From Escherichia coli (GTDB lineage: Bacteria; Pseudomonadota; Gammaproteobacteria; Enterobacterales; Enterobacteriaceae): a DNA stretch of 64,000 bases. The notes below the pieces were generated by a model. It had not been told where the DNA came from. It did not search any database and saw nothing but the letters and a program-made list of their open reading frames with translations. Within the stretch, counting starts at the first letter, position 1. Every line of letters begins with the position of its first letter. The stretch lies in assembly GCF_003334785.1 (NCBI RefSeq), contig NZ_QOWV01000008.1, one strand, 5' to 3'. Position numbers and translations under genes: made by a program. Shown here piece after piece: positions 8,419-53,172 of the stretch.

Positions 8419-9666
8419 ATGGCGGGACCCGTTTTGTATCAGGACCGCGCCATGAAACAGATAACCTTTGCTCCCCGTAATCACCTGCTCACCAATACCA
8501 ATACCTGGACGCCCGACAGCCAGTGGCTGGTATTTGACGTGCGTCCTTCTGGCGCGTCGTTTACCGGCGAGACCATTGAGCGTGTGAATATCCATACCGG
8601 CGAGGTCGAGGTTATCTATCGCGCGTCACAGGGCGCACACGTCGGCGTGGTGACCGTTCATCCGAAGTCAGAGAAATATGTTTTCATCCACGGCCCGGAA
8701 AATCCTGATGAAACATGGCATTACGACTTCCATCATCGGCGCGGAGTGATTGTTGAAGGCGGCAAGATGAGTAACCTTGATGCGATGGATATTACCGCGC
8801 CGTATACGCCAGGAGTGCTGCGCGGCGGCAGCCATGTGCATGTCTTTAGCCCGAACGGTGAAAGGGTGAGCTTTACCTATAACGACCATGTAATGCATGA
8901 ACTCGATCCGGCGCTGGATTTGCGAAACGTCGGTGTTGCTGCGCCGTTTGGCCCGGTCAACGTACAAAAGCAGCATCCGCGTGAATACAGCGGTAGCCAC
9001 TGGTGCGTGCTGGTGAGCAAAACCACGCCCACGCCACAGCCTGGCAGTGATGAAATCAATCGTGCTTATGAAGAAGGATGGGTAGGAAATCACGCGCTGG
9101 CATTTATTGGCGACACACTTTCGCCAAAGGGCGAGAAAGTGCCGGAGCTGTTTATCGTTGAGTTACCGCAAGATGAAGCTGGCTGGAAAGCGGCAGGTGA
9201 TGCGCCGTTAAGCGGAACGGAAACAACCCTGCCCGCGCCACCGCGTGGCGTCGTGCAGCGACGTTTAACCTTTACCCACCATCGGGCTTATCCGGGGTTA
9301 GTCAACGTCCCGCGCCACTGGGTGCGCTGTAATCCGCAGGGTACACAAATCGCGTTTTTAATGCGAGATGATAACGGCATTGTGCAACTGTGGCTTATCT
9401 CGCCACAGGGCGGCGAGCCGCGCCAGTTAACCCATAACAAAACGGATATTCAGTCTGCATTTAACTGGCATCCGTCAGGAGAATGGTTGGGCTTTGTGCT
9501 GGATAATCGAATTGCTTGTGCCCATGCGCAAAGCGGCGAGGTTGAGTATTTAACCGAACACCACGCCAATTCACCTTCTGCGGACGCCGTGGTCTTCTCG
9601 CCGGATGGTCAGTGGCTGGCGTGGATGGAAGGCGGCCAGCTGTGGATCACCGAAACTGATCGCTAA
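8419..9666 (+). CDS. yidR: Uncharacterized protein YidR
   Basis: ORF 8416..9666; start codon choice between adjacent Met codons is uncertain. Confidence 0.75.
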   Translation: MAGPVLYQDRAMKQITFAPRNHLLTNTNTWTPDSQWLVFDVRPSGASFTGETIERVNIHTGEVEVIYRASQGAHVGVVTVHPKSEKYVFIHGPENPDETWHYDFHHRRGVIVEGGKMSNLDAMDITAPYTPGVLRGGSHVHVFSPNGERVSFTYNDHVMHELDPALDLRNVGVAAPFGPVNVQKQHPREYSGSHWCVLVSKTTPTPQPGSDEINRAYEEGWVGNHALAFIGDTLSPKGEKVPELFIVELPQDEAGWKAAGDAPLSGTETTLPAPPRGVVQRRLTFTHHRAYPGLVNVPRHWVRCNPQGTQIAFLMRDDNGIVQLWLISPQGGEPRQLTHNKTDIQSAFNWHPSGEWLGFVLDNRIACAHAQSGEVEYLTEHHANSPSADAVVFSPDGQWLAWMEGGQLWITETDR

Positions 9667-9667
9667 A

Positions 9668-10000
9668 TCAGTTATCAGGCATTCTGGCCGGTGGAATAAC
9701 CGCATTGGTGGCTTGCGCGTTGGCTTCGCTTTTTTCAACGCGCGAGCGCACCGAGCTGTCTTTGCGGAACACATCCCACGGCAGTAAAAGCGTGTCCATC
9801 ACAGCGGTAAACGGCATATCGAGAATCGCCAGCGACTTAGTGCCCCAGTTGGTTTCATCGTCGCCAATCATGGTTGCGCTGGCGCGGGTGCCGGGATACG
9901 TTCCTTCTTTCCCTCCGGTATGGGACATCACGCTGGAGCATCCTCCGAGTAATGTCATTCCGCTGCATATCATGAACGCTAACAACACATTTCTTATCAT
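9668..10000 (-). CDS. yidQ: Putative lipoprotein YidQ
   Basis: ORF 9668..10075; internal start MIRNVLLAFMICSGMTLLGGC with lipobox; 110 aa. Confidence 0.7.
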   Translation of the reverse strand: MIRNVLLAFMICSGMTLLGGCSSVMSHTGGKEGTYPGTRASATMIGDDETNWGTKSLAILDMPFTAVMDTLLLPWDVFRKDSSVRSRVEKSEANAQATNAVIPPARMPDN

Positions 10001-40616: not shown

Positions 40617-41249
40617 TCTTCTGAATCACCGGGCGAAAAAATATAACTGAGTTACAAATAAGTACCAGTCGAATGAGTATTGTATTAAGAATTTTTGAGT
40701 ATCGCTGATACAACCAGAAAGCAATGCTAGCGCAATATTATAGGGCCAGCAATTGAGATTATTAGTAAAAGCATGTTAAGAATTAATTACCGAATTTATA
40801 TATTAATTATAGTAAGGCAATGAGCTATTTTTGATAGTAAAAATAAAACAAGTTGATTTGATATATTAAATGAACAAATTAATCTTGATGGCAGTCTGAT
40901 TATTGGTGAAGTTTATAGTCAGTTTTTTTCGCCAGCGGTTAAAGAAATAGAATAGTCGTATAAAAAAGGGTGTTCTGGGGCGAGTAAAACAACATCTTCA
41001 CCTTAATGGCGATACAGTTGGCTGAGAGTCAGCAGGGGGGCAAATCACCTGCAAATAAACACGGCGCATACTGGCGTGAATATCGCGGATGCGTTCGAGG
41101 ACAGAAGAACCGACAGGCGGATTCTTCAGCCGCTCATCGTCCATCACAAAACCTTAGACCAGGTATTCCTGAAGCCGATTGAATATTGAGCAGTAGAAAA
41201 TATCTGGATTGACAGTATTACAAGGGGTTGGAGAACGTCAGGAGAGGCA

Positions 41250-41273
41250 TTTTGGCGGAAGATCACAGGAGTC
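41250..41273. repeat. Distal att repeat: 24-bp direct copy of the selC 3' end
   Basis: ttttggcggaagatcacaggagtc is identical to 53075..53098. Confidence 0.7.
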
Positions 41274-41401
41274 AAAATTGACATATAACAATTTGATTCC
41301 AATCGTTTATATTTATCAGCTCTAATTCATTTATACACATCCTTATACACATAATATCTGTCGATTAATTTTTACACGTATCTTCACGCACGTTAACTCA
41401 G

Positions 41402-41695
41402 GAAAAAAATTTTTTTTCGAAAGAACTGTTCACACTGTTCACCTTTCTGTTTTCTCCTTTTATTTCAGTTTGATAGGTGGTGAATAATGGGTGAAGGGTG
41501 AACATTCGATTCTTCACCTCCGGCATTCTGCCGGTGTGACTTGTGCAGGGGATTAATCCTCCGCACTGAAATCACACAGGGAGAAAAAAGTTTTTTTGAT
41601 TTGATTGTTCATCTTTCGTTTTTCTCTTTTAATTTCAGTGTGATAACGGGTGAATATACGGTGAAGGGTGAACAGTGGATTGTTCACTTTCGGGG
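41402..41695. repeat. crr-like region: two imperfect ~120-bp direct repeats with TGTTCAC motifs
   Basis: Units at about 41402..41522 and 41579..41695 share tgttcac / gggtgaa / ggtgaagggtgaaca blocks. Confidence 0.6.
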
Positions 41696-41703
41696 AATTC
41701 AGG

Positions 41704-41731
41704 GATAAAAAAAGACCGGCAGATGCCGGTC
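41704..41731 (-). terminator. Rho-independent terminator after alpha
   Basis: gaccggcagatgccggtc hairpin with U-run on the minus strand. Confidence 0.6.
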
Positions 41732-41738
41732 AGATGAG

Positions 41739-44072
41739 TCAGGCTGTTGCAGGGTCGTCACATTTCGGCAGCCAGTCGCCGTAGCTTTCCTCTTTCAGCG
41801 TCAGGTTGGTCTGTATCCCCTGTTTGGTATGGCGCTTCTCGTAATTCAGTCCGTATTCCTTCAGCATCACCGGCAGCCCCAGCCCGAACATTTTCAGACT
41901 GAGTACATTCCGGTAGCCGTTTGCCTCCATGTAGGCCAGATAGGCGTGATAGAGGTATTTACGGTAATTACGCGGGATGATACTGGCGTTCCCCATATAC
42001 ATGCCGCTGGTCTGCGGCAGGGTTTCCAGATAGCCGATAAAATCAAACGTCGGGTCGGCATCCCGTTTGATGTTCAGTGCCTCGTCTGAGTTCTGCTGGG
42101 ACTGAAGCAGTGACCGGGCGAGCATCGGGTCGCTGAACTTCTGCATCAGGTAACGCACGATGACCGCCAGCTCGCGGGTGATTTTGTCCTTAAGCTGCGG
42201 GTCGCGCTCCTGCGGGGCTATCTGTTCCGGGAAGTGAATAATCACCCGCCGGCGTGACACGCCGCCGCTGCGGTCGGTGAAGCGCATCGGGTTATTGTTC
42301 ACGGCCAGAATCACCGCCGGGATGTGCGTGGAGTACGCATCCCGGTATTTCGGGTCAACGGACACCGCATCGCCGCCGGTGATGGCCTTGAGTCCGGCAC
42401 CGTCGCCGCTCCATTTTTCCTGGTCCGGCAGGCGTATCAGTGAGAAGCCAGTTAACGCGGCACGTTCACGCGGGGATTCCAGCGTCTCGATGGTGGCCGA
42501 CGTGGCGTTATCCTCACCGGCCAGCAGGGTGGCTATTTCGGCCATGATACTTTTGCCGCTGCCGCCGGGACCGGTCACCTCCAGAAAGAGCTGCCAGTCG
42601 TAGCGGTTTGCCAGCACCATAAACAGTGCGGCCAGAATCACGTCGCGTTTTTCCGCACGGCCACCGGCGGCACGGTCAAGCCAGCGCCAGAATGCGGGGG
42701 CGTGGGTTTCCAGCGTTTCACCTTCCACCGGCGGGGTGAAATCCACATCGCACAGGGCGCGCATCCAGTGTGACGGACTGTGCGGGTGGAACGTGCCGTT
42801 CTGCGTGTCGAGCACGCCGTTACGAAAGCCAATCAGGCGGCGGGAGGGGGCTTCCTGCTGCGGAATAATCAGCTTCAGGGTGTCCACCACGGAGGCCACC
42901 TTCCCGGAGGAGAACGGCGCGCGCAGACGCTGAAACAGCCCGGCCACATCCCGGGCAAAGTCCTGTGGTGGCAGCACCTTCCAGACACCATTTTCATAGC
43001 GGGACAGAAGCTGGCCGTTGGCATCGACCGCGAGCGCCTCGCCGTAATGCTCATAGATACGCATGGCCTTTTCGCTGGTACTCATGGCGGAAAACTCCGC
43101 TTCGCTCATGGTGTCGAACGGGCTTTCAGCCGGTGGCCGGATGGCATCATAAATGGCCTTACGGGTGGTTTCCCCGCCGTACTGCGTGAAGGCATCATTC
43201 CAGTCACCGAAGACCGGCGGCAGGGCAACAACGCCCTCACACGCATCTGCGGCTGCGGCGGCTTTTTTCTGGCCGTCACCGCTGAGGTCACGGTCTGCGG
43301 CAAGGACAATCTGACAGGCCGGATGCTTCTGCCGGGCAAGGCTGGCCAGAGAAAGGAGGTTCACGGAAGAAAGCGCCACCATCACCGTTTCACCGGTCAG
43401 GTGATGTACGGTAAGTGCGGTCGCGTATCCCTCCGCTATCCACAGACGTTTTCCGGCCTGATTCTGTCCTTCAAGGGTGTGACAGGTGCCCCTGACCTGT
43501 CCGCCTTTCAGGGTGCGCTTACGGCCGTCAGCACTGATTAACTGAAGGTTAACCAGTTCGCCGCTGTCGTCATACAGTGGCACCACAAGGTCACCGGCGC
43601 GCCAGCTCACGCCACCGGCTCTGTGTGTGCCGGTCAGCATCCGGCATTCCCGGCCGGGAAAGCCCTTGCGGGTCAGGTAGGCGTTACCGGTTCCGGGACG
43701 GGTTTTCGCCATCAGGGTTTGTGCCAGTGCGGCGGCGTTCTTCCGGGCGGCTTCTGTTTCAGCACCGGCGGCGGCCGTCACTGCCGGGTCAGCCGGGGGC
43801 AGGCAGCCGGTCACGGCAGCCACCTTTGCGGCCGCGTCGGACGGGGAAACACCAAACACCTTTTCAACCAGTTTCAGGCCGTCACCGGCACCACACTGAT
43901 TGCAGTACCAGGTGCCGCGCCCCTCCCTGTCATCAAAACGGAAACGGTCACTTCCGCCACAGACCGGACAGGGCTGATGACGGTTTTTCAGCACCTGAAT
44001 CCCCAGCGACGGGAGAATACGCGGCCAGTGGCCGAGCGCATGGCTGACGGTGGCGGTTACGTTCATTTTCAT
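41739..44072 (-). CDS. P4 alpha-type primase-helicase
   Basis: 777-aa ORF; N-terminal zinc-ribbon CPVCGG..CNQCG, Walker A GPGGSGKS. Confidence 0.9.
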   Translation of the reverse strand: MKMNVTATVSHALGHWPRILPSLGIQVLKNRHQPCPVCGGSDRFRFDDREGRGTWYCNQCGAGDGLKLVEKVFGVSPSDAAAKVAAVTGCLPPADPAVTAAAGAETEAARKNAAALAQTLMAKTRPGTGNAYLTRKGFPGRECRMLTGTHRAGGVSWRAGDLVVPLYDDSGELVNLQLISADGRKRTLKGGQVRGTCHTLEGQNQAGKRLWIAEGYATALTVHHLTGETVMVALSSVNLLSLASLARQKHPACQIVLAADRDLSGDGQKKAAAAADACEGVVALPPVFGDWNDAFTQYGGETTRKAIYDAIRPPAESPFDTMSEAEFSAMSTSEKAMRIYEHYGEALAVDANGQLLSRYENGVWKVLPPQDFARDVAGLFQRLRAPFSSGKVASVVDTLKLIIPQQEAPSRRLIGFRNGVLDTQNGTFHPHSPSHWMRALCDVDFTPPVEGETLETHAPAFWRWLDRAAGGRAEKRDVILAALFMVLANRYDWQLFLEVTGPGGSGKSIMAEIATLLAGEDNATSATIETLESPRERAALTGFSLIRLPDQEKWSGDGAGLKAITGGDAVSVDPKYRDAYSTHIPAVILAVNNNPMRFTDRSGGVSRRRVIIHFPEQIAPQERDPQLKDKITRELAVIVRYLMQKFSDPMLARSLLQSQQNSDEALNIKRDADPTFDFIGYLETLPQTSGMYMGNASIIPRNYRKYLYHAYLAYMEANGYRNVLSLKMFGLGLPVMLKEYGLNYEKRHTKQGIQTNLTLKEESYGDWLPKCDDPATA

Positions 44073-44086
44073 GGTGTTGTTCTCCT

Positions 44087-44407
44087 TCAGTGCAGTACCG
44101 GCGCTTTTATGTGACGGGCACAGAGTTCATCCATCACAACCAGCCCGAGAAAGGACAGCGACGGCGCGGCCTTCAGGGGGCCGGATTCCATTAAATCTTC
44201 CAGCAGGGCACAGGCTATCTGACGCCCTTTTTCCTCACCGTGCTGGCGCAGATAAAAGCCTTCCAGCTCAGCGGCGATGGCCGCCTCCAGTGACTCAAGG
44301 GTGAGATGCGGGTAGCGGTGCTGACGTTCGCACACGGTCAGCCAGGCACAGGCGACAGCGCGACGGTAAAGGGCAGCGCGTAAGACGGGCGGTAAGGGGG
44401 TTTTCAT
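44087..44407 (-). CDS. Hypothetical protein, P4 left-operon position (orf106-like)
   Basis: 106-aa ORF immediately upstream of alpha, same strand. Confidence 0.5.
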
Positions 44408-44542
44408 TTGTTTTCCTCCCTGTGACAGATGACTGCATTCCGTGCCGGTTGCATTAACTGATAAGGCATATCTGCGTCTCCTGAAGACGTGCGTATCCCT
44501 GCGCGAATACGCACATTTAATTTTTCGGGTGTCGTTTTTTAA

Positions 44543-44998
44543 TTACAGATAATTGCGGTAACTGTTATCCGGGGTGATTTCCGGGTCAGGCTCCGTGCGG
44601 GGAATTTCCCGCCATTCCCGCGCCACCGGTGCCGCCCGGCTGACCGGAACAGGGTCCTGCGGGTAAATATCCAGATATTTCTCCCGCCATTTCTGTAATT
44701 CCGGGTCTCCGGCCATTTCTTTCAGTACCGCATGCCGGTTTACGGGGCTGCGTTTAAACAGGTCAGGACGGTCACAGGTAAATTCCCGCAGAAAACGCCC
44801 CAGCGGGATGTCTGTGGTGCGCCCGTCGGCGATGATACGCACAAGGATACTGAATTTACGGCGGTACGGGTTCCAGACAATTTCCGGGCAGCGGTACGGC
44901 ATTTCCCACGGAATACCGTCTTCCAGAATGCCGACCACGGCCACATCGGGAAAACCGGCAGAACGGTAAATCTCACCGGGCTGGGGAAAATCAAACAT
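44543..44998 (-). CDS. Hypothetical protein, P4 left-operon position (orf151-like)
   Basis: 151-aa ORF co-oriented with alpha. Confidence 0.5.
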   Translation of the reverse strand: MFDFPQPGEIYRSAGFPDVAVVGILEDGIPWEMPYRCPEIVWNPYRRKFSILVRIIADGRTTDIPLGRFLREFTCDRPDLFKRSPVNRHAVLKEMAGDPELQKWREKYLDIYPQDPVPVSRAAPVAREWREIPRTEPDPEITPDNSYRNYL

Positions 44999-45857
44999 GC
45001 GTCCTGTCTCCCCGGTCTTTCTGCTGGGCGAGAAAATCGCGGCACAGGCCTTTGGCTTTCAGCTCATTCAGCACAAAATCAATATCTTCATTCAGGTAAC
45101 TGAAAATATGCGGAATGTAGAGCTGATGCAGGCCGGAGAGTTCACGGTGAATCAAATCACCCCCAACAAACTGGGATACGGCGCTGGCGCGGTTGAGCTT
45201 ATGGTAAGCCTCAATGCTGAGGTGTTCACGGGCGTCATGACGCGCTGAGACGGTCTGAGGGGCTTTTTTATTACGCACGGGACACCTCCACCACCGGCAG
45301 ACGGGCAGCAAGGGAGAGCACATAGTCACGGACAAGGGAACGGCGGGCGCTGCGTTCATCACCGGCGACGGTGCGAAGCATACAGATACGGGGATGACGG
45401 TCTGTGCGACGGACAGCCGCAAACACAAAGACAAATTCAGGGTGTGAGGGGGTAAGGGTTGTAGCCATGATGGCAGCCTCCTGTGAATAGCAAATAACGC
45501 TATCGCCGGAGTTCTCACGCTCGATGGCGATAGCCCAGACGGGGGTGAGAATACCGGCTTCACAGGATACCGGCCAGCCCGGAGGCTGCCCCGCCTGAGC
45601 TACCATTGACTCAGAGGCATAACATGCGATTGCGAACAGGATCATACCTGCACGGCAAACCACACGCCACACCATAATCTGGTGCTCTGTGGCGTTGATT
45701 GCGACACAAAAAAAGACGCATGGCGCGTCATATGTCGCCTGTGAATTGCTCGGGTTCTCACGCCCGGCTGCCGATTTTGCGGCAGCGGAAAAACTATATC
45801 CGCAAATGCCGGAAAAAGGCAAGCCAGAAAAAGGGAGTTTTTGCAGAGCGGGCATCA

Positions 45858-46124
45858 TCATGCGTCGTACCCCCGTTTGCGTCCGGCAATGCGTCCGGCC
45901 ATCCATGCGGTGACTTCAGAGTGCAGCCAGGCCACATTTTTACCGCCAAGACTCACCTGCGGCGGAAATTCCCCCTTACGGATGAGTTCGTAGATGGTCG
46001 AGCGTGACAGGCCGCACAGGTGCATCACTTCCGGAAGACGTAAAAAACGCTCCTGTGTGATGTCCGGCAGCGGCATCAGTGGCGTCACAGGGGCGGGAGA
46101 CGGGGAAGAAAAAACAGCTTGCAT
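45858..46124 (-). CDS. AlpA/Vis-family small DNA-binding regulator
   Basis: 88-aa ORF with HTH-like [16 protein letters not shown]. Confidence 0.65.
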
Positions 46125-46403
46125 CGGGCTACCTCGTTAATGTCCATACAGCACCGGATAAGTCCGTCCGGCTTCAGGTAGCGCTTTATTTTGTGAATAT
46201 TTTCAGCAGACGCAACAGGGGGGATTTGTTCCGGCAGCCTTACAATGCTTGTGTATTTTTTGTTCATCTCCACTTAAAGTCATTTAAAGCCACTTAAAGC
46301 AATTCGTAATTTTTATAGTGAAATACAAATCGTTTTTTCTTATTCATTCCCGGCGAATTAATAAAAACAAACAGTAATAAACAGCACAAAAAGCCCATCA
46401 ACG

Positions 46404-46508
46404 GGTGAACAGTGGTGAACAGACGGTGAACAGTCATTACTGCGATTGTTCACCCTTTAACTTACTGTATTACTTATCTTTTTTCTTATGGTGAACAGAG
46501 GTGAACAG
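46404..46508. repeat. ori-like iteron cluster (GGTGAACAG octamer copies)
   Basis: Five direct copies of ggtgaacag plus one inverted ttgttcacc within about 105 bp, between divergent vis and sid. Confidence 0.6.
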
Positions 46509-46676
46509 TAAAATATAAAAAAACAAACAGTAAGCCGGTTTTTCCTACGACCTTTTCCTGGCTTGCCGGTGTGAGGATGAGTCTCCTGTGTCAGGGCTGG
46601 CACATCTGCAATGCGTCGTGTTGTTGTCCGGTGTACGTCACAATTTTCTTAACCTGAAGTGACGAGGAGCCGGAAA

Positions 46677-47411
46677 ATGTCTGACAACACCATCCCTGAA
46701 TATCTGCAACCCGCACTGGCACAACTGGAAAAGGCCAGAGCCGCCCACCTTGAGAACGCCCGACTGATGGATGAGACCGTCACGGCCATTGAACGGGCAG
46801 AGCAGGAAAAAAATGCGCTGGCGCAGGCCGACGGAAATGACGCTGATGACTGGCGCACAGCCTTTCGTGCAGCCGGTGGTGTCCTGAGCGACGAGCTGAA
46901 ACAGCGCCACATTGAGCGCGTGGCACGCCGGGAGCTGGTACAGGAATATGACAATCTGGCCGTGGTGCTGAATTTTGAACGTGAACGCCTGAAAGGGGCG
47001 TGTGACAGCACGGCTACCGCCTACCGGAAGGCACATCATCACCTTCTGAGTCTGTATGCAGAGCATGAGCTGGAACACGCCCTGAATGAAACCTGTGAGG
47101 CGCTTGTCCGGGCAATGCATCTGAGCATTCTGGTACAGGAAAATCCGATCGCCAACACCACCGGCCATCAGGGCTACGTCGCACCCGATAAGGCTGTCAT
47201 GCAGCAGGTGAAATCATCGCTGGAACAGAAAATTAAACAGATGCAAATCAGCCTCAGCGGCGAGCCGGTTCTCCGGCTGACCGGACTGTCAGCGGCAACA
47301 CTTCCGCACATGGATTATGAGGTGGCAGGCACACCGGCACAGCGCAAGGTGTGGCAGGACAAAATAGACCAGCAGGGAGCAGAGCTTAAGGCCAGAGGAC
47401 TGCTGTCATGA
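46677..47411 (+). CDS. P4 Sid-like capsid size-determination scaffold
   Basis: ORF 46659..47411; ATG at 46677 preceded by gaggag RBS; 244 aa, coiled-coil-rich. Confidence 0.8.
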   Translation: MSDNTIPEYLQPALAQLEKARAAHLENARLMDETVTAIERAEQEKNALAQADGNDADDWRTAFRAAGGVLSDELKQRHIERVARRELVQEYDNLAVVLNFERERLKGACDSTATAYRKAHHHLLSLYAEHELEHALNETCEALVRAMHLSILVQENPIANTTGHQGYVAPDKAVMQQVKSSLEQKIKQMQISLSGEPVLRLTGLSAATLPHMDYEVAGTPAQRKVWQDKIDQQGAELKARGLLS

Positions 47412-47908
47412 TTTACTGCCCGTCGTGTGGACATGTTGCTCACACCCGCCGCGCACATTTTATGGACGATGGCACCAAGATAATGATTGCACAGTGCCGG
47501 AATATTTATTGCTCTGCGACATTTGAAGCGAGTGAAAGCTTTTTCTCTGACAGTAAAGATTCAGGAATGGAATACATTTCAGGCAAACAGAGATACCGCG
47601 ATTCACTGACGTCAGCCTCCGGTAGCATGAAGCGCCCGAAAAGAATGCTTGTTACCGGATATTGTTGTCGGAGATGTAAAGGCCTTGCACTGTCAAGAAC
47701 ATCGCGGCGTCTGTCTCAGGAAGTCACCGAGCGTTTTTATGTGTGCACGGATCCGGGCTGTGGTCTGGTGTTTAAAACGCTTCAGACCATCAACCGCTTC
47801 ATTGTCCGCCCGGTCACGCCGGACGAACTGGCAGAAAGCCTGCATGAAAAACAGGAACTGCCGCCAGTACGCTTAAAAACACAATCATATTCGCTGCGTC
47901 TGGAATGA
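47408..47908 (+). CDS. P4 Delta-like late transactivator (tandem Ogr-type zinc finger)
   Basis: 166-aa ORF with two CxxC..CxxC blocks (CPSCGH..CRNIYC and CRRCKG..CTDPGC). Confidence 0.8.
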   Translation: MIYCPSCGHVAHTRRAHFMDDGTKIMIAQCRNIYCSATFEASESFFSDSKDSGMEYISGKQRYRDSLTSASGSMKRPKRMLVTGYCCRRCKGLALSRTSRRLSQEVTERFYVCTDPGCGLVFKTLQTINRFIVRPVTPDELAESLHEKQELPPVRLKTQSYSLRLE

Positions 47909-47981
47909 GGGCTGCCGGTTAACACCGGCCGTCGCCGCACACCGTATTTTTATTCTTCAGCATGATGAGAAAGAGATAACG

Positions 47982-48554
47982 ATGGAAAGCACAGCCTTAC
48001 AGCAGGCCTTTGACACCTGTCAGAATAACAAAGCAGCATGGCTGCAACGCAAAAATGAGCTGGCTGCGGCCGAACAGGAATATCTGCGGCTTCTGTCAGG
48101 AGAAGGCAGAAACGTCAGTCGCCTGGACGAATTACGCAATATTATCGAAGTCAGAAAATGGCAGGTGAATCAGGCCGCCGGTCGTTATATTCGTTCGCAT
48201 GAAGCCGTTCAGCACATCAGCATCCGCGACCGGCTGAATGATTTTATGCAGCAGCACGGCACAGCACTGGCGGCGGCACTGGCACCGGAGCTGATGGGCT
48301 ACAGTGAGCTGACGGCCATTGCCCGAAACTGTGCCATACAGCGTGCCACAGATGCCCTGCGTGAAGCCCTTCTGTCCTGGCTTGCGAAGGGTGAAAAAAT
48401 TAATTATTCCGCACAGGATAGCGACATTTTAACGGCCATTGGATTCAGACCTGACGCGGCTTCGGTGGATGACAGCCGTGAAAAATTCACCCCTGCGCAG
48501 AACATGATTTTTTCGCGTAAAAGTGCGCAACTGGCATCACGTCAGTCTGTGTAA
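47982..48554 (+). CDS. P4 Psu-like polarity suppression / capsid decoration protein
   Basis: 190-aa ORF following delta. Confidence 0.8.
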   Translation: MESTALQQAFDTCQNNKAAWLQRKNELAAAEQEYLRLLSGEGRNVSRLDELRNIIEVRKWQVNQAAGRYIRSHEAVQHISIRDRLNDFMQQHGTALAAALAPELMGYSELTAIARNCAIQRATDALREALLSWLAKGEKINYSAQDSDILTAIGFRPDAASVDDSREKFTPAQNMIFSRKSAQLASRQSV

Positions 48555-48718
48555 AATTCCCCGAAAATCCGCCCGTTTTTACTGAAAAAAGCCATGCATC
48601 GATAAGGTGCATGGCTTTGCATGCGTTTTCCTGCCTCATTTTCTGCAGATCGCGCCACGCCCGGCGTGGCCTGAGCGTGTCAGCGCAACTGCATTAAAAC
48701 CATCCCACAAAGCGGGCG

Positions 48719-48737
48719 GGCGAGGCGGGGAAAGCAC
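48719..48737. other. cos site (P2/P4-type 19-nt cohesive end sequence)
   Basis: ggcgaggcggggaaagcac. Confidence 0.6.
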
Positions 48738-48979
48738 TGCGCGCTTACTTAGATGCGTGAATTTATTTATATCACTGAAGTATATCCCTAAGCTCATTTC
48801 TCAAAGGGCCTATGGTTGCACAAGGTTGTACCATGGCATTCAAAACTTTTTAAACCAAGAATGACAATTTCATTATTAGGCCGGAATAGTTACTAATTTT
48901 AGTATAGGTTGCGATTGTTTAACGCATTTTTTATTATGATGCAGATTTTATTATTACTAATGGGGTGCAAAAAACACGT

Positions 48980-50269
48980 ATGAAAAAAAATGTTGGTAAC
49001 CGCAATAAAAATTCTGATGTGCTTATTCTTAAAGGTATGTTGAACAATTTAAAAGATGGTTTAAATAATTTTGAATTATTGCTTAAATTGCAGTTTAAAA
49101 TATTGGTGTGCGTGATGAGATGTGAGCGGAAAATTAAGTTTCTTAAAAAGAATAATGCTCATTTAAGGTCGGTGTTAAAAAAATCAAGACTTCCAAAAGA
49201 AAAATCTCTGGCAGTAAAAGAAAAAATTAAATACAATTCTGAAGTAATTACTGCTGAAAAATTCAAGATATATACGTATAAAATGTTTGGCGATGCTGTT
49301 GCATTTTTATACATCGATAAATATACAATTAAACAGTTATACTACAATGTACATAATTACAATGTTAAAGAAACGTCGGGGGATTTGAGCGGTAAGTCTG
49401 GATTGCGAGAGGAATGGGAATGCGTAAAACTTGCATGTGATAATAAAGTTCCAGCTCTGTTGCATGATATTACAATGAGTATAAGGCATGGAGATGTATC
49501 ACTTTTAGGTAAAGATGAGCCATTTATTATTGAGATGAAATCAAGCTCAAATACAAATAAGAGAGTTGAGCGGCAAAAATCTAACCTTGAAAAATTAGGA
49601 AGTTTCATAGCAAAAGACGAAGCTGAAAATTTTCGAGGGATTCCATTGTTAATCAGGAAAAATTTGTTAACTGAAGAGGAATCATATTCTCAGGTTTTAA
49701 ATGAGTGTCTTAATGATTGTCGCAGCAAAGGAATGGCTTTGGTTGAAGCTGAAAAAGGATTTTATATCTGCGCAGTTAGAGAAGGGAATATGGCTTCTAT
49801 GCTAGAAAATATAGATTTTGATGAAAAAAAAGAAGTTTTTCCTGTATTTCTCAATCAATATAAAAATAATGGGGAGTGGCTACCATTAACACCATTTACA
49901 CTATTAATTAACGATCCTTACGATCTCCATGATTTTATCGAAGGGGAATTAACAATAGCTTGTTTTTTAATGCTCGATGAATACAAAAAAATTGCTATAG
50001 AACTAGGCTATGAATTAGTTTTTGTTTCTAATGATGAATATAGTATCTTGTTAAAAAGAATTGGTGAAGATATTATATTTGGTGTTTCCTGGCAAATGTT
50101 GTTAAGAGTTCCATTAGAGATGATGTCCATGTCATGGTTGATAAAAGAAAGTATTAATATATATAGTAACTCCCTAGAAAATAGCACCCATAATGATGAA
50201 TTAAATCAGGGGCAGGGAAATACTAAAAATTCATTATTCGAAAAATACAAGAATTTATTTTCTTACTAA
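48980..50269 (+). CDS. Hypothetical protein in satellite variable region; PD-(D/E)xK-like signature
   Basis: ORF 48965..50269 (GTG) or ATG at 48980; AT-rich; motif HGDVSLLGKDEPFIIEMK. Confidence 0.6.
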   Translation: MKKNVGNRNKNSDVLILKGMLNNLKDGLNNFELLLKLQFKILVCVMRCERKIKFLKKNNAHLRSVLKKSRLPKEKSLAVKEKIKYNSEVITAEKFKIYTYKMFGDAVAFLYIDKYTIKQLYYNVHNYNVKETSGDLSGKSGLREEWECVKLACDNKVPALLHDITMSIRHGDVSLLGKDEPFIIEMKSSSNTNKRVERQKSNLEKLGSFIAKDEAENFRGIPLLIRKNLLTEEESYSQVLNECLNDCRSKGMALVEAEKGFYICAVREGNMASMLENIDFDEKKEVFPVFLNQYKNNGEWLPLTPFTLLINDPYDLHDFIEGELTIACFLMLDEYKKIAIELGYELVFVSNDEYSILLKRIGEDIIFGVSWQMLLRVPLEMMSMSWLIKESINIYSNSLENSTHNDELNQGQGNTKNSLFEKYKNLFSY

Positions 50270-50301
50270 TTAAGCATTGTAATTATATTTGATTTTTTCT
50301 A

Positions 50302-50335
50302 CAGGCTTGGACGGAATCATATAGCTCCAAGCCTG
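50302..50335. terminator. Hairpin between the two convergent cargo ORFs
   Basis: Perfect 10-bp stem caggcttgga..tccaagcctg with 14-nt loop. Confidence 0.45.
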
Positions 50336-50370
50336 TTGTGTCGGTATCAAAAAGAAAGTGATATTATTGT

Positions 50371-51744
50371 TTATCTAATATATTTTGTTACTTCCATATT
50401 ATCTTCATCGTCAAAAGAGTACTCAACCATCATACGACTATTTTTACCTGACTTAATATCTTGAAGCCAAGCTGAGGCAACCCTAGGGTCTAAATGCTGT
50501 TTTCTACTCAGCTCATTATTTTTTAGCCTATCAAGCCTTATTGCTCTTTGAAGAGTTTTATCGATGTAGTCTTCCAAATCAATGGACAACCTCCTTTTTG
50601 GATATAAATATTGGTATTCATCACACAATAGTACTCCTGGTAATTTAATTTCGCGTAGGTCGAAAGAATACCAACTATAGTTTTTAGACTCATTAGCTAA
50701 TTCCGAAACTAGATGAGCCCCATTTTGTTGTAAGAGAGATATTTTGTGATCGATGCTAATGTCAGATATTTCTCTTAAAGACTCAAAATGCATGTTTTCG
50801 TAGATAGTATTTAATAAAATACTCTCCATGTAAGAGTAAAAATCAGTACCATCGATGATAATATTAGTTTCATTGTAGACTGCAAGAGACATAAGATATA
50901 TGAAGAAAACTGCGGGAGTACTATTACCTCTGTTTATATCAAGTCTAAGGGAGTTGACATAATCAGGCGGAGAGTTTGAGAAAATTTCTCTTATTAACCA
51001 GTCTGGAATAGTGGTTCTTGTTAGAATGTCAGCGTTCAAACTTGAACGACATAAAAAAATACACATCTTTAATTTTAATTTTATTGAAAATGATGGGAAT
51101 AAATGATCGATGAAAGATAAAATACATGTATACTCTGCTAAGTCTGTTTGTTGCAACTTTTCTTTTATTTCATTTTCAAGCATTTTTAATTTAAAAAAAT
51201 CATTCCTTTTTTCTAATATTTCCCAATGAAATAATTGCTCCTGAGCGTACGCATGCCCCTCTAAAATAGCTAGCATGCTTAAAGGAATGTTTAGGATTTC
51301 TTGATAATTATTAACATACCCAAAGAAATGGACTCTGATATACACACCCATATCGTCATCATATTGTAATGATGCTTTAATATTTTTATAATTTAATTTA
51401 TTAGTGCTGTTGTTTTTGAAGTGATAATGTAAAGTAATTTCAGTATCATCAACTAATAAATTATCAAAAGCCTCCTTTGTTTCATATTTAAAATAGTTAT
51501 ATAGCCGACATGAATAATTTAACCCCCAGTGAGTTGTAGAACAATCAAGTAAATGGATTGTTTCATGGAGATATGTTTTATAAAATTCAATTTCGCTATC
51601 ATCAAAATCATATATGCTTTTACTGTCTATGATATTTTGTGCTTGCGGTAAACTTATATTTAATTCATCGTTTGAAATCTCAATTAAATGTGATGAAAAA
51701 TCATAAGAACCCAATGTTTTGCTGTTAAATATACATCCGCTCAT
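50371..51744 (-). CDS. Hypothetical protein with HEXXH zinc-metallopeptidase motif, translationally coupled to int
   Basis: 457-aa AT-rich ORF; YLHETIHLLD at residues 58..67; start overlaps int stop as ATGA; agggga RBS. Confidence 0.65.
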   Translation of the reverse strand: MSGCIFNSKTLGSYDFSSHLIEISNDELNISLPQAQNIIDSKSIYDFDDSEIEFYKTYLHETIHLLDCSTTHWGLNYSCRLYNYFKYETKEAFDNLLVDDTEITLHYHFKNNSTNKLNYKNIKASLQYDDDMGVYIRVHFFGYVNNYQEILNIPLSMLAILEGHAYAQEQLFHWEILEKRNDFFKLKMLENEIKEKLQQTDLAEYTCILSFIDHLFPSFSIKLKLKMCIFLCRSSLNADILTRTTIPDWLIREIFSNSPPDYVNSLRLDINRGNSTPAVFFIYLMSLAVYNETNIIIDGTDFYSYMESILLNTIYENMHFESLREISDISIDHKISLLQQNGAHLVSELANESKNYSWYSFDLREIKLPGVLLCDEYQYLYPKRRLSIDLEDYIDKTLQRAIRLDRLKNNELSRKQHLDPRVASAWLQDIKSGKNSRMMVEYSFDDEDNMEVTKYIR

Positions 51745-52916
51745 AGCAAATCCCCTAAAAGATAATCAGAGTACCATTGAATCATCGTTTTCCTTTGAGA
51801 AAAATATTGTGCGTGATTATAGGTTCCTCGGATATTGTTCTTATCAACATGTGCTAATTGCATTTCAATCCAGGTACTATCAAATCCCTGTTCATGTAGG
51901 ATTGTTGACATTGTATGTCTAAAACCGTGACCTGTAGCACGTCCTTTGTAACCAAGTAACTCAATCACTTGTGAAACACTTTCTTTTGAAATTGGTTTGC
52001 TACGATTGTTCCTGCCAATAAAAATATAGGGATAATGGCCGGTGATAGGCTTTAGCTGTTTAAAGAGGTCTACCACCTGAGTAGACAAAGGTACAATATG
52101 TGGTCTGCGCATTTTCATACGTTCCGCTGGTATCTCCCATATACCTTTTTCGAGGTCTACTTCTTCCCACGTAGCAAAGCGCATCTCCTGCGTTCTTACA
52201 CCAGTCAGCATGACTATCTTCGTAGCATTTTTGGTGATGATGCTACCGGTATAAGCTTCGAGATCCCGAATAAAATGAGGCAATTCTTCGGCAGATAGAA
52301 ATGGATGATGTTTTTGCTTAGGAACGGCCAGAGCGATGGCTAAATCAGGCGCAGGATTGTATTCAGCGCGGCCAGTTATGATTGCGTAGCGATAAACCTC
52401 ACCGCACCTCTGACGTACCTTACGTGTTTTCTCTAGTGCTCCACGCTTCTCTATTCGTCGCAACACTTCAAGAAGTTCTAAGGGTTTGATTTCACTAATA
52501 GGACGTTTACCAATGAACGGGAAAACATCTTGCTCAAATGTTTTAATAATTTCTTCGCGGTAGGCAAGTGTCCAGCGATCGGCTTTATTTGAGTGCCACT
52601 CACGACATATAGCCTCGAATGAGTTTTCTGTTGAGAGCTGCTGTGCCAGCTTTTGGGCTTTACGTTCTTCCACTGGGTCTATGCCGTTTGCAACCTGCTT
52701 CCGAGCTGTATCGCGTTTCTCACGTGCTTCAGCTAGGCTCACAAGGTCGTAGCTACCAAATGACATTAACCGCGCTTTTCCGGCAAAGCGGAAACGGAAA
52801 CGCCAGCCCTTCGAGCCATCGGGATTGATAAGCAATGACAGGCCCTGCCCGTCGTTCAATGTGTATGGCTTGTCTTGGGGCTTTGCTCGTTTGATTTGTA
52901 TATCTGTAAGTGCCAT
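51741..52916 (-). CDS. int: P4-type tyrosine integrase
   Basis: 391-aa ORF with C-terminal catalytic-type residues (GHGFRHT.., ..NHAQY); adjacent to tRNA 3' end. Confidence 0.9.
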   Translation of the reverse strand: MALTDIQIKRAKPQDKPYTLNDGQGLSLLINPDGSKGWRFRFRFAGKARLMSFGSYDLVSLAEAREKRDTARKQVANGIDPVEERKAQKLAQQLSTENSFEAICREWHSNKADRWTLAYREEIIKTFEQDVFPFIGKRPISEIKPLELLEVLRRIEKRGALEKTRKVRQRCGEVYRYAIITGRAEYNPAPDLAIALAVPKQKHHPFLSAEELPHFIRDLEAYTGSIITKNATKIVMLTGVRTQEMRFATWEEVDLEKGIWEIPAERMKMRRPHIVPLSTQVVDLFKQLKPITGHYPYIFIGRNNRSKPISKESVSQVIELLGYKGRATGHGFRHTMSTILHEQGFDSTWIEMQLAHVDKNNIRGTYNHAQYFSQRKTMIQWYSDYLLGDLL

Positions 52917-53077
52917 GTGTATAAGCCAAAAATATGTATAAAAAATCTATACACATCACTATACATATTTTTCATGGATTCAGGGAGATCTTGTCGGACG
53001 GTTACGGATGAGTGATTTACTATATGTTTTGAAAATAAAGGATTTTTAGACTCTCTCGGATGGTGACGGAAGAATTT

Positions 53078-53172
53078 TGGCGGAAGATCACAGGAGTCGA
53101 ACCTGCCCGGGACCGCTGGCGGCCCCAACTGGATTTGAAGTCCAGCCGCCTCACCGGAGACGACGATCTTCC
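53078..53172 (-). tRNA. selC: tRNA-Sec (selenocysteine)
   Basis: Minus strand reads GGAAGATCGTCGTCTCCGGTGAGGCGGCTGGACTTCAAATCCAGTTGGGGCCGCCAGCGGTCCCGGGCAGGTTCGACTCCTGTGATCTTCCGCCA. Confidence 0.85.

Follow-up and report, generated by a model that had tools for sequence, protein, structure and literature searches.

A P4-like satellite at selC of Escherichia coli and its putative P4-type bipartite origin of replication

The DNA analysed here (64,000 nucleotides of contig NZ_QOWV01000008.1, in the following called the window) is part of the Escherichia coli chromosome: across the region, it is 99.7% identical to strain A1. It contains a P4-like element of 11.85 kb (41250-53099), integrated at selC (Table 1). 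Seven P4-like marker components are present: int, psu, delta, sid, alpA/vis, epsilon and alpha. Six of these share 98-99% identity with P4, and int 38%. The protein identity to P4 is 91-100% for alpha, Cnr, ORF151, epsilon, Vis, Sid, delta and Psu. Like other P4-like satellites, the element possesses the cos site of P2-type helpers and direct att repeats at a tRNA gene. At the DNA level, positions 41404-48718 are colinear with P4 4291-11624, with an identity of 97.7% over 7.3 kb.

Table 1. Position of the P4-like element's features in the window, with their relation to phage P4 (GenBank X51522).
Feature	Position	Strand	Remarks
Distal att repeat	41250..41273	+	24 bp, TTTTGGCGGAAGATCACAGGAGTC; copy of the selC 3' end
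crr repeat copy 1	41404..41523	+	120 bp; five type 1 sites as in P4: TGTTCACA, TGTTCACC, GGTGAATA, GGTGAACA, TCTTCACC
crr repeat copy 2	41584..41693	+	110 bp; eroded relative to P4
Alpha terminator (talpha)	41704..41731	-	GC-rich hairpin and T-run; aligns to P4 4604-4628
alpha	41739..44072	-	777 aa; primase, SF3 helicase, C-terminal winged-helix origin-binding domain; phrog_2249, TIGR01613
cnr (P4 ORF106)	44087..44407	-	Copy-number regulator; length as in P4, one synonymous difference, protein 100% identical
CI/C4 immunity RNA	45523..45610	-	Rfam matches in the RNA region: RF01695 (74.9 bits), RF01394 (71.4), RF03163 (49.5)
isrK	45709-45786	.	Rfam match, immunity RNA region
c4-a1b1 targets	45747-45799	.	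Rfam match, immunity RNA region
vis (P4 ORF88)	45858..46124	-	Left neighbour of the origin; 98.9% identical to P4
Span equivalent to P4 rep_origin	46180..46903	.	Transferred from X51522 <9086..9809; colinear block, offset 37094
ori type 2 repeats	46270..46299	+	Three tandem 10-bp repeats, CCACTTAAAG TCATTTAAAG CCACTTAAAG; identical to P4 9176-9205
ori1 iteron block	46404..46507	+	Six type 1 octamers: GGTGAACA five times direct, TGTTCACC once inverted; equals P4 X51522 9310-9413
sid	46677..47411	+	Right neighbour of the origin; 98.4% identical to P4
delta	47408-47908	.	After sid; 98-99% identical to the P4 protein
psu	47982-48554	.	After delta; 98-99% identical to the P4 protein
cos junction	48700..48737	.	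P4 right end AAAGCGGGCG joined to left end GGCGAGGCGGGGAAAGCAC; matches both P4 termini
429-aa cargo gene	48980-50269	+	psu-int hotspot; convergent with the 457-aa gene
457-aa cargo gene	50371-51744	-	psu-int hotspot; overlaps the int end by 4 bp
Integrase	51741-52916	-	Adjoins the proximal att; 38% identical to P4 Int
Proximal att repeat	53076..53099	+	24 bp; inside the tRNA-Sec 3' end
tRNA-Sec (selC)	53078-53172	-	Hosts the proximal att repeat

The homology to P4 DNA starts exactly at the left edge of crr (41404) and ends ~25 bp past cos (about 48737-48745). These limits and the distant integrase indicate that the int-att module and the cargo were swapped as blocks; the gop-beta-cII cargo of P4 is replaced by other genes. 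The element differs from P4 in this cargo, in its location at selC and in its 38% identical integrase. A conserved core with swapped integrases is known from P4-like satellites (PMC8628076, Moura de Sousa & Rocha 2022), and so is a variable defence hotspot between psu and int, beside cos (PMC9122126, Rousset et al. 2022). With the P4-like satellites of the Enterobacterales, the element shares the seven markers in conserved order, the chromosomal site, the cos-adjacent cargo and the exchanged integrase, and it does not differ from them in any point of substance. A P2-type helper was not found in the window. The stretch 41250-53099 thus forms an intact P4-like satellite at selC that can probably be mobilised. 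Beyond its distal border, between setC and the att repeat, lies a fragment of a rhuM pseudogene (41013-41174, annotated in the near-identical strain A1), which may be the remnant of an earlier selC island.

The two cargo genes of the psu-int hotspot gave no match in Pfam, NCBIfam or PADLOC and no relative of solved structure by sequence; the sole match in the PHROG search was to a family whose function is unknown. Table S1 of Rousset et al. 2022 (PMC9122126) gives the pair as "hypothetical + hypothetical". In the 429-aa protein, D172, E185-x-K187, R195, R198 and Q199 are invariant, and the D172/E185/K187 pattern resembles the motif of PD-(D/E)xK nucleases. The 457-aa protein resembles a metallopeptidase: it has an invariant HExxH (H60-E61-x-x-H64) and a conserved LEGHAYAQE block at 161-169. 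Its AlphaFold model, with a pLDDT of 49, was too poor for use. Homologues of the 457-aa protein with 34-35% identity occur without the 429-aa partner in Vibrio parahaemolyticus (loci L016-L018, 6001-7347) and in Idiomarina (locus L019, 6001-7356). The Vibrio homologue is a single cassette amid acetyltransferase and toxin-antitoxin cassettes, and the one of Idiomarina adjoins a Tn7-like tnsA / Mu-transposase / tniB / tniQ module. The idea of an obligate two-gene cargo system is weakened by these distant homologues lacking the partner.

Upstream of sid lies a block of iterons at 46404-46508. An earlier note on this DNA had described an iteron cluster between divergent vis and sid genes, and the P4 homologues are indeed placed in this way, vis on the minus strand and sid on the plus strand. 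Its count of five direct copies and one inverted copy of an octamer holds as well; the string it gave, however, is a 9-mer, and the inverted copy fits the octamer alone. The 9-mer GGTGAACAG is found on the plus strand at 46404, 46414, 46425, 46490 and 46500, and the single inverted octamer TGTTCACC at 46447-46454. The block is thus built as GGTGAACAG-T-GGTGAACAG-AC-GGTGAACAG, followed by 14 bases, the inverted TGTTCACC, an AT-rich stretch of 35 bp and GGTGAACAG-A-GGTGAACAG. In P4, the type 1 repeat is defined as the octamer GGTGAACA/TGTTCACC; the six octamers found here have a spacing of about one helical turn. The AT-rich spacer (46455-46489) has an AT content of 80%, vs. 52.6% for the whole element.

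The region was matched in the phage collection at 97% identity to P4, on the features "origin of DNA replication", "ori type 1 repeat (x6)" and "ori type 2 repeat (x3)". Here, ori and crr are defined as in the GenBank annotations made by the P4 depositors (X51522 / NC_001609; X02534; X05623). Aligned to P4 base by base, the six type 1 repeats, the three type 2 repeats and all spacings are unchanged. Near the iterons, the element departs from P4 by no more than two substitutions, which fall in the AT-rich spacer; the spacer itself is present in both, and the position of the origin between vis and sid is also shared. In P4, deletion of any ori1 iteron reportedly inactivates oriI.

Repeats of such a short unit could also be a simple repeat without function, produced by chance or slippage, and a tandem gain of 10 bp does happen in relatives of the element. 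The exact 9-mer GGTGAACAG, however, occurs eight times in the window for an expected 0.43, a count that none of 100 dinucleotide-preserving shuffles reached, and seven of the eight copies lie inside the ori1 and crr regions. For the shorter TGTTCAC, 20 copies were counted vs. 7.5 expected, 11 of them in the same regions. Furthermore, the iteron block is the best-conserved intergenic segment in the comparison with the divergent P4-like element XPF_3 (locus L011): 82% of its positions are identical, vs. 41-63% in the adjacent intergenic segments. In XPF_3, the (A/G)GTGAACAG units are retained together with their spacing, and so are the inverted copy and the AT-rich spacer; the type 2 repeats were not conserved in the alignment to this divergent element. 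A chance origin of the repeats is refuted by the shuffles and by this conservation, and a repeat devoid of function has next to no probability.

Two P4-like elements have a seventh ori1 iteron, at ~279-340 in L013 (NZ_CP013029) and ~280-340 in L014 (NZ_CP027584). In both, it results from a 10-bp tandem gain, giving four left tandem copies vs. three, and the remaining origin is unchanged. Around the block in the window, an imperfect direct repeat, AAT(T/A)A(A/T)AAAAACAAACAGTAA, is visible at 46356-46377 and 46512-46533; its two copies flank the iterons at a distance of 156 bp from each other. The divergent XPF_3 has kept the right-hand one (AAAAAAACAAACAGT). Possibilities for this repeat are a host-factor site or a part of the origin.

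The second set of repeats lies just downstream of alpha. Its matches in the phage collection are the P4 features "crr (cis required region for replication)" and "crr 120bp direct repeat (x2)", along with the terminator and end of alpha. As in P4, crr consists of two tandem repeats of ~120 bp immediately past the alpha terminator; they have a core of 88 nt with 81% identity. The two direct repeats of ~120 bp with a TGTTCAC core, reported earlier past alpha, are thus real, but the second copy measures 110 bp, because of a 9-bp deletion and a T-run shorter by one base. For the same two reasons, the repeats are 170 bp apart, vs. 180 in P4. A separation of the iterons from crr, given before as ~4.8 kb, was found too, at 4.7 kb edge-to-edge and 5.0 kb start-to-start.

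In crr copy 1, all five sites are those of P4. Copy 2 on the contrary has lost one site and carries two substituted ones. The 9-bp deletion (junction 41605/41606) removes one iteron (TGTTCACAC), the surviving neighbour site is TGTTCATC where P4 has TGTTCACC (C>T at 41612), and TGTTCACT stands in place of TGTTCACC at the last site. The T-run at 41591-41597 lacks one base relative to P4. One perfect octamer is left in this copy, vs. three in P4.

Alignment to P4 also bears out the ori plus crr arrangement proposed in the earlier note: the annotated type 1 and type 2 ori repeats are identical, and 41404-41693 aligns to crr. Very probably, 46404-46508 is the ori1 half and 41404-41693 the crr half of the bipartite origin of a P4-like satellite. 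That the repeats serve mainly as transcriptional operators of divergent vis and sid late promoters, and not as an origin, is highly improbable. Such a role would agree with the place of the cluster, upstream of vis and sid and between two TGT-N12-ACA boxes (46227-46244 and 46587-46604). These boxes, however, show no enrichment in the window (15 vs. 13.9 expected) and serve here as positional landmarks only. Moreover, copies of the iteron motif are also present in crr, which lies 5 kb away beyond a terminator and has no promoter context, and immediately past the primase of an unrelated island, and the P4 depositors annotate the sites as origin.

The initiator of P4 has its counterpart here: alpha, with its C-terminal winged-helix domain, and Cnr are both present. 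Alpha is identical to P4 alpha at 765 of 777 positions (98%), over the full length and with zero gaps. Its origin-binding winged-helix domain, residues 671-770, matches PDB 1KA8 (E 1e-63) and is free of substitutions relative to P4. Over its 2334 nt, the gene differs from P4 at 36 nucleotides. P4 has a second origin, ori2 (replicon II), inside this gene. For the eight core genes compared with P4, a pS of 0.043 and a pN of 0.0065 were obtained, i.e., a pN/pS of 0.15 (0.16 for alpha alone), which indicates that the core genes have been under purifying selection since the split from P4. Every component of the origin is homologous to that of P4, intact and conserved. The functionality of the replicon is well supported since alpha, cnr, ori1 and crr copy 1 are intact and purifying selection is evident; judged from the sequence, the replicon is probably functional.

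Variation of crr was inspected at a sample of loci, including L002, L003, L004 and L007, and by means of a 91-bp probe over the deletion. Among the complete E. coli genomes, 17 matched this probe at 95-99% identity and 13 at 90-95%; a further 1004 matched at 80-90%, the range in which the undeleted P4-type allele falls, and zero complete genomes reached at least 99%. The deletion allele is rare: it is found in about 17-30 of 1034 E. coli genomes. At the sampled loci, the 9-bp deletion is common to other selC-integrated elements (A1, SCU-115), in which the surviving site is still consensus; the window alone has C>T at 41612 and the shorter T-run. In 23CRST012, a single hybrid crr copy stands beside a full-length alpha. 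In 0H23, an IS3 is inserted inside crr, and the alpha region is degraded. From these sampled alleles, it appears that crr varies in nature, and ori1 hardly.

Could the element then carry an origin that is P4-homologous but attenuated or defective? The erosion of crr copy 2 would reduce the occupancy by alpha, and the element would be on its way to a fixed island. The loss of perfect octamers in copy 2 speaks for this, as do the two private changes, the lack of any complete genome with at least 99% identity over the probe and the existence of a relative such as 0H23. Nevertheless, an attenuated replicon is rather unlikely. Copy 1 is untouched, the core genes are all intact with a low pN/pS, and the 9-bp deletion is common to several otherwise intact selC elements. 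Moreover, the 23CRST012 allele indicates that one crr copy is tolerated in nature. One 120-bp repeat is reportedly enough for crr function, with which this single-copy crr is consistent.

For a replicon that is functional, the mode of action can be outlined by homology with P4. The domain order of P4 alpha, including an SF3 helicase and a DnaG-type primase, has been described (PMC2777425). The C-terminal winged helix of alpha would bind the GGTGAACA/TGTTCACC iterons at both ori1 and crr. At ori1, it would meet six phased sites around the 35-bp AT-rich stretch; the sites of crr would be engaged at a distance of ~5 kb, immediately beyond the terminator of alpha. The SF3 helicase would then open the AT-rich DNA, the primase would prime synthesis, and Cnr, encoded beside alpha, would restrain initiation. 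The chromosomal copy would be expected to fire once it has been derepressed and excised from selC, e.g., upon infection by a P2-type helper. In this way, we infer binding by alpha, melting of the origin and competence for replication.

Iteron origins and a distant homology between Pri-Rep and alpha have been described for Gram-negative PICIs (PMC6092414, Fillol-Salom et al. 2018). Like the P4 origin, those of PICIs combine iterons around an AT-rich stretch with a primase-helicase initiator. The PICI origin, however, occupies one site immediately 3' of pri-rep, whereas that of P4 is bipartite, with ori1 ~5 kb from crr and beyond the regulatory genes. A further case was seen in CREC-629 (L015, NZ_CP024815, 7047-9150), which has a tandemly duplicated, capsid-forming island of the PICI type with genes for int, an icd-like protein, primase, ssb, major capsid, head decoration and terS. 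At least nine GGTGAAC/GTTCACC iterons, with the same GGTGAACAG/TGTTCACC motif, follow right after its 605-aa primase. The identity of this primase to alpha is 48% over alpha residues 290-771, a range that takes in the C-terminal DNA-binding region; the N-terminal parts of the two proteins are unrelated. On account of the common iterons and the related primase, the two satellite families appear to share an iteron-initiator module. In view of the PICI precedent (PMC6092414), the sharing of iterons with PICI-type islands is not claimed as new.

The origin is widespread in the species. Of 5426 complete E. coli genomes, 1051 (about a fifth) contain the 196-bp ori segment, 965 of them with at least 95% identity. 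None of the about 1250 places found in complete E. coli genomes with the ori segment and the crr probe is on a plasmid. P4-like elements have never been seen as plasmids in genome collections (PMC8628076) and, because they are never found on plasmids, autonomous plasmid maintenance may be irrelevant in nature.

As a discovery, the finding is small: ori, crr and alpha of P4 were sequenced and annotated in the 1980s, and what is seen here is the very origin of P4 in a closely related element, and so already known. The useful result is a correct label for 41250-53099, with a replication module that can be annotated base by base. The origin alleles seen include those with one or two crr copies, with erosion of copy 2 and with an additional, seventh ori iteron, and the crr series among them would serve as an inexpensive natural experiment on the number of alpha sites required in crr. 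A more speculative reading, quite improbable on present evidence, is that crr, and to a lesser degree ori1, is a naturally tunable half of the P4 origin, the eroded allele of the window being an adaptive attenuation and not decay. If this is true, allele variation could set the strength of replication, and it could cause titration or incompatibility between satellites sharing a cell.
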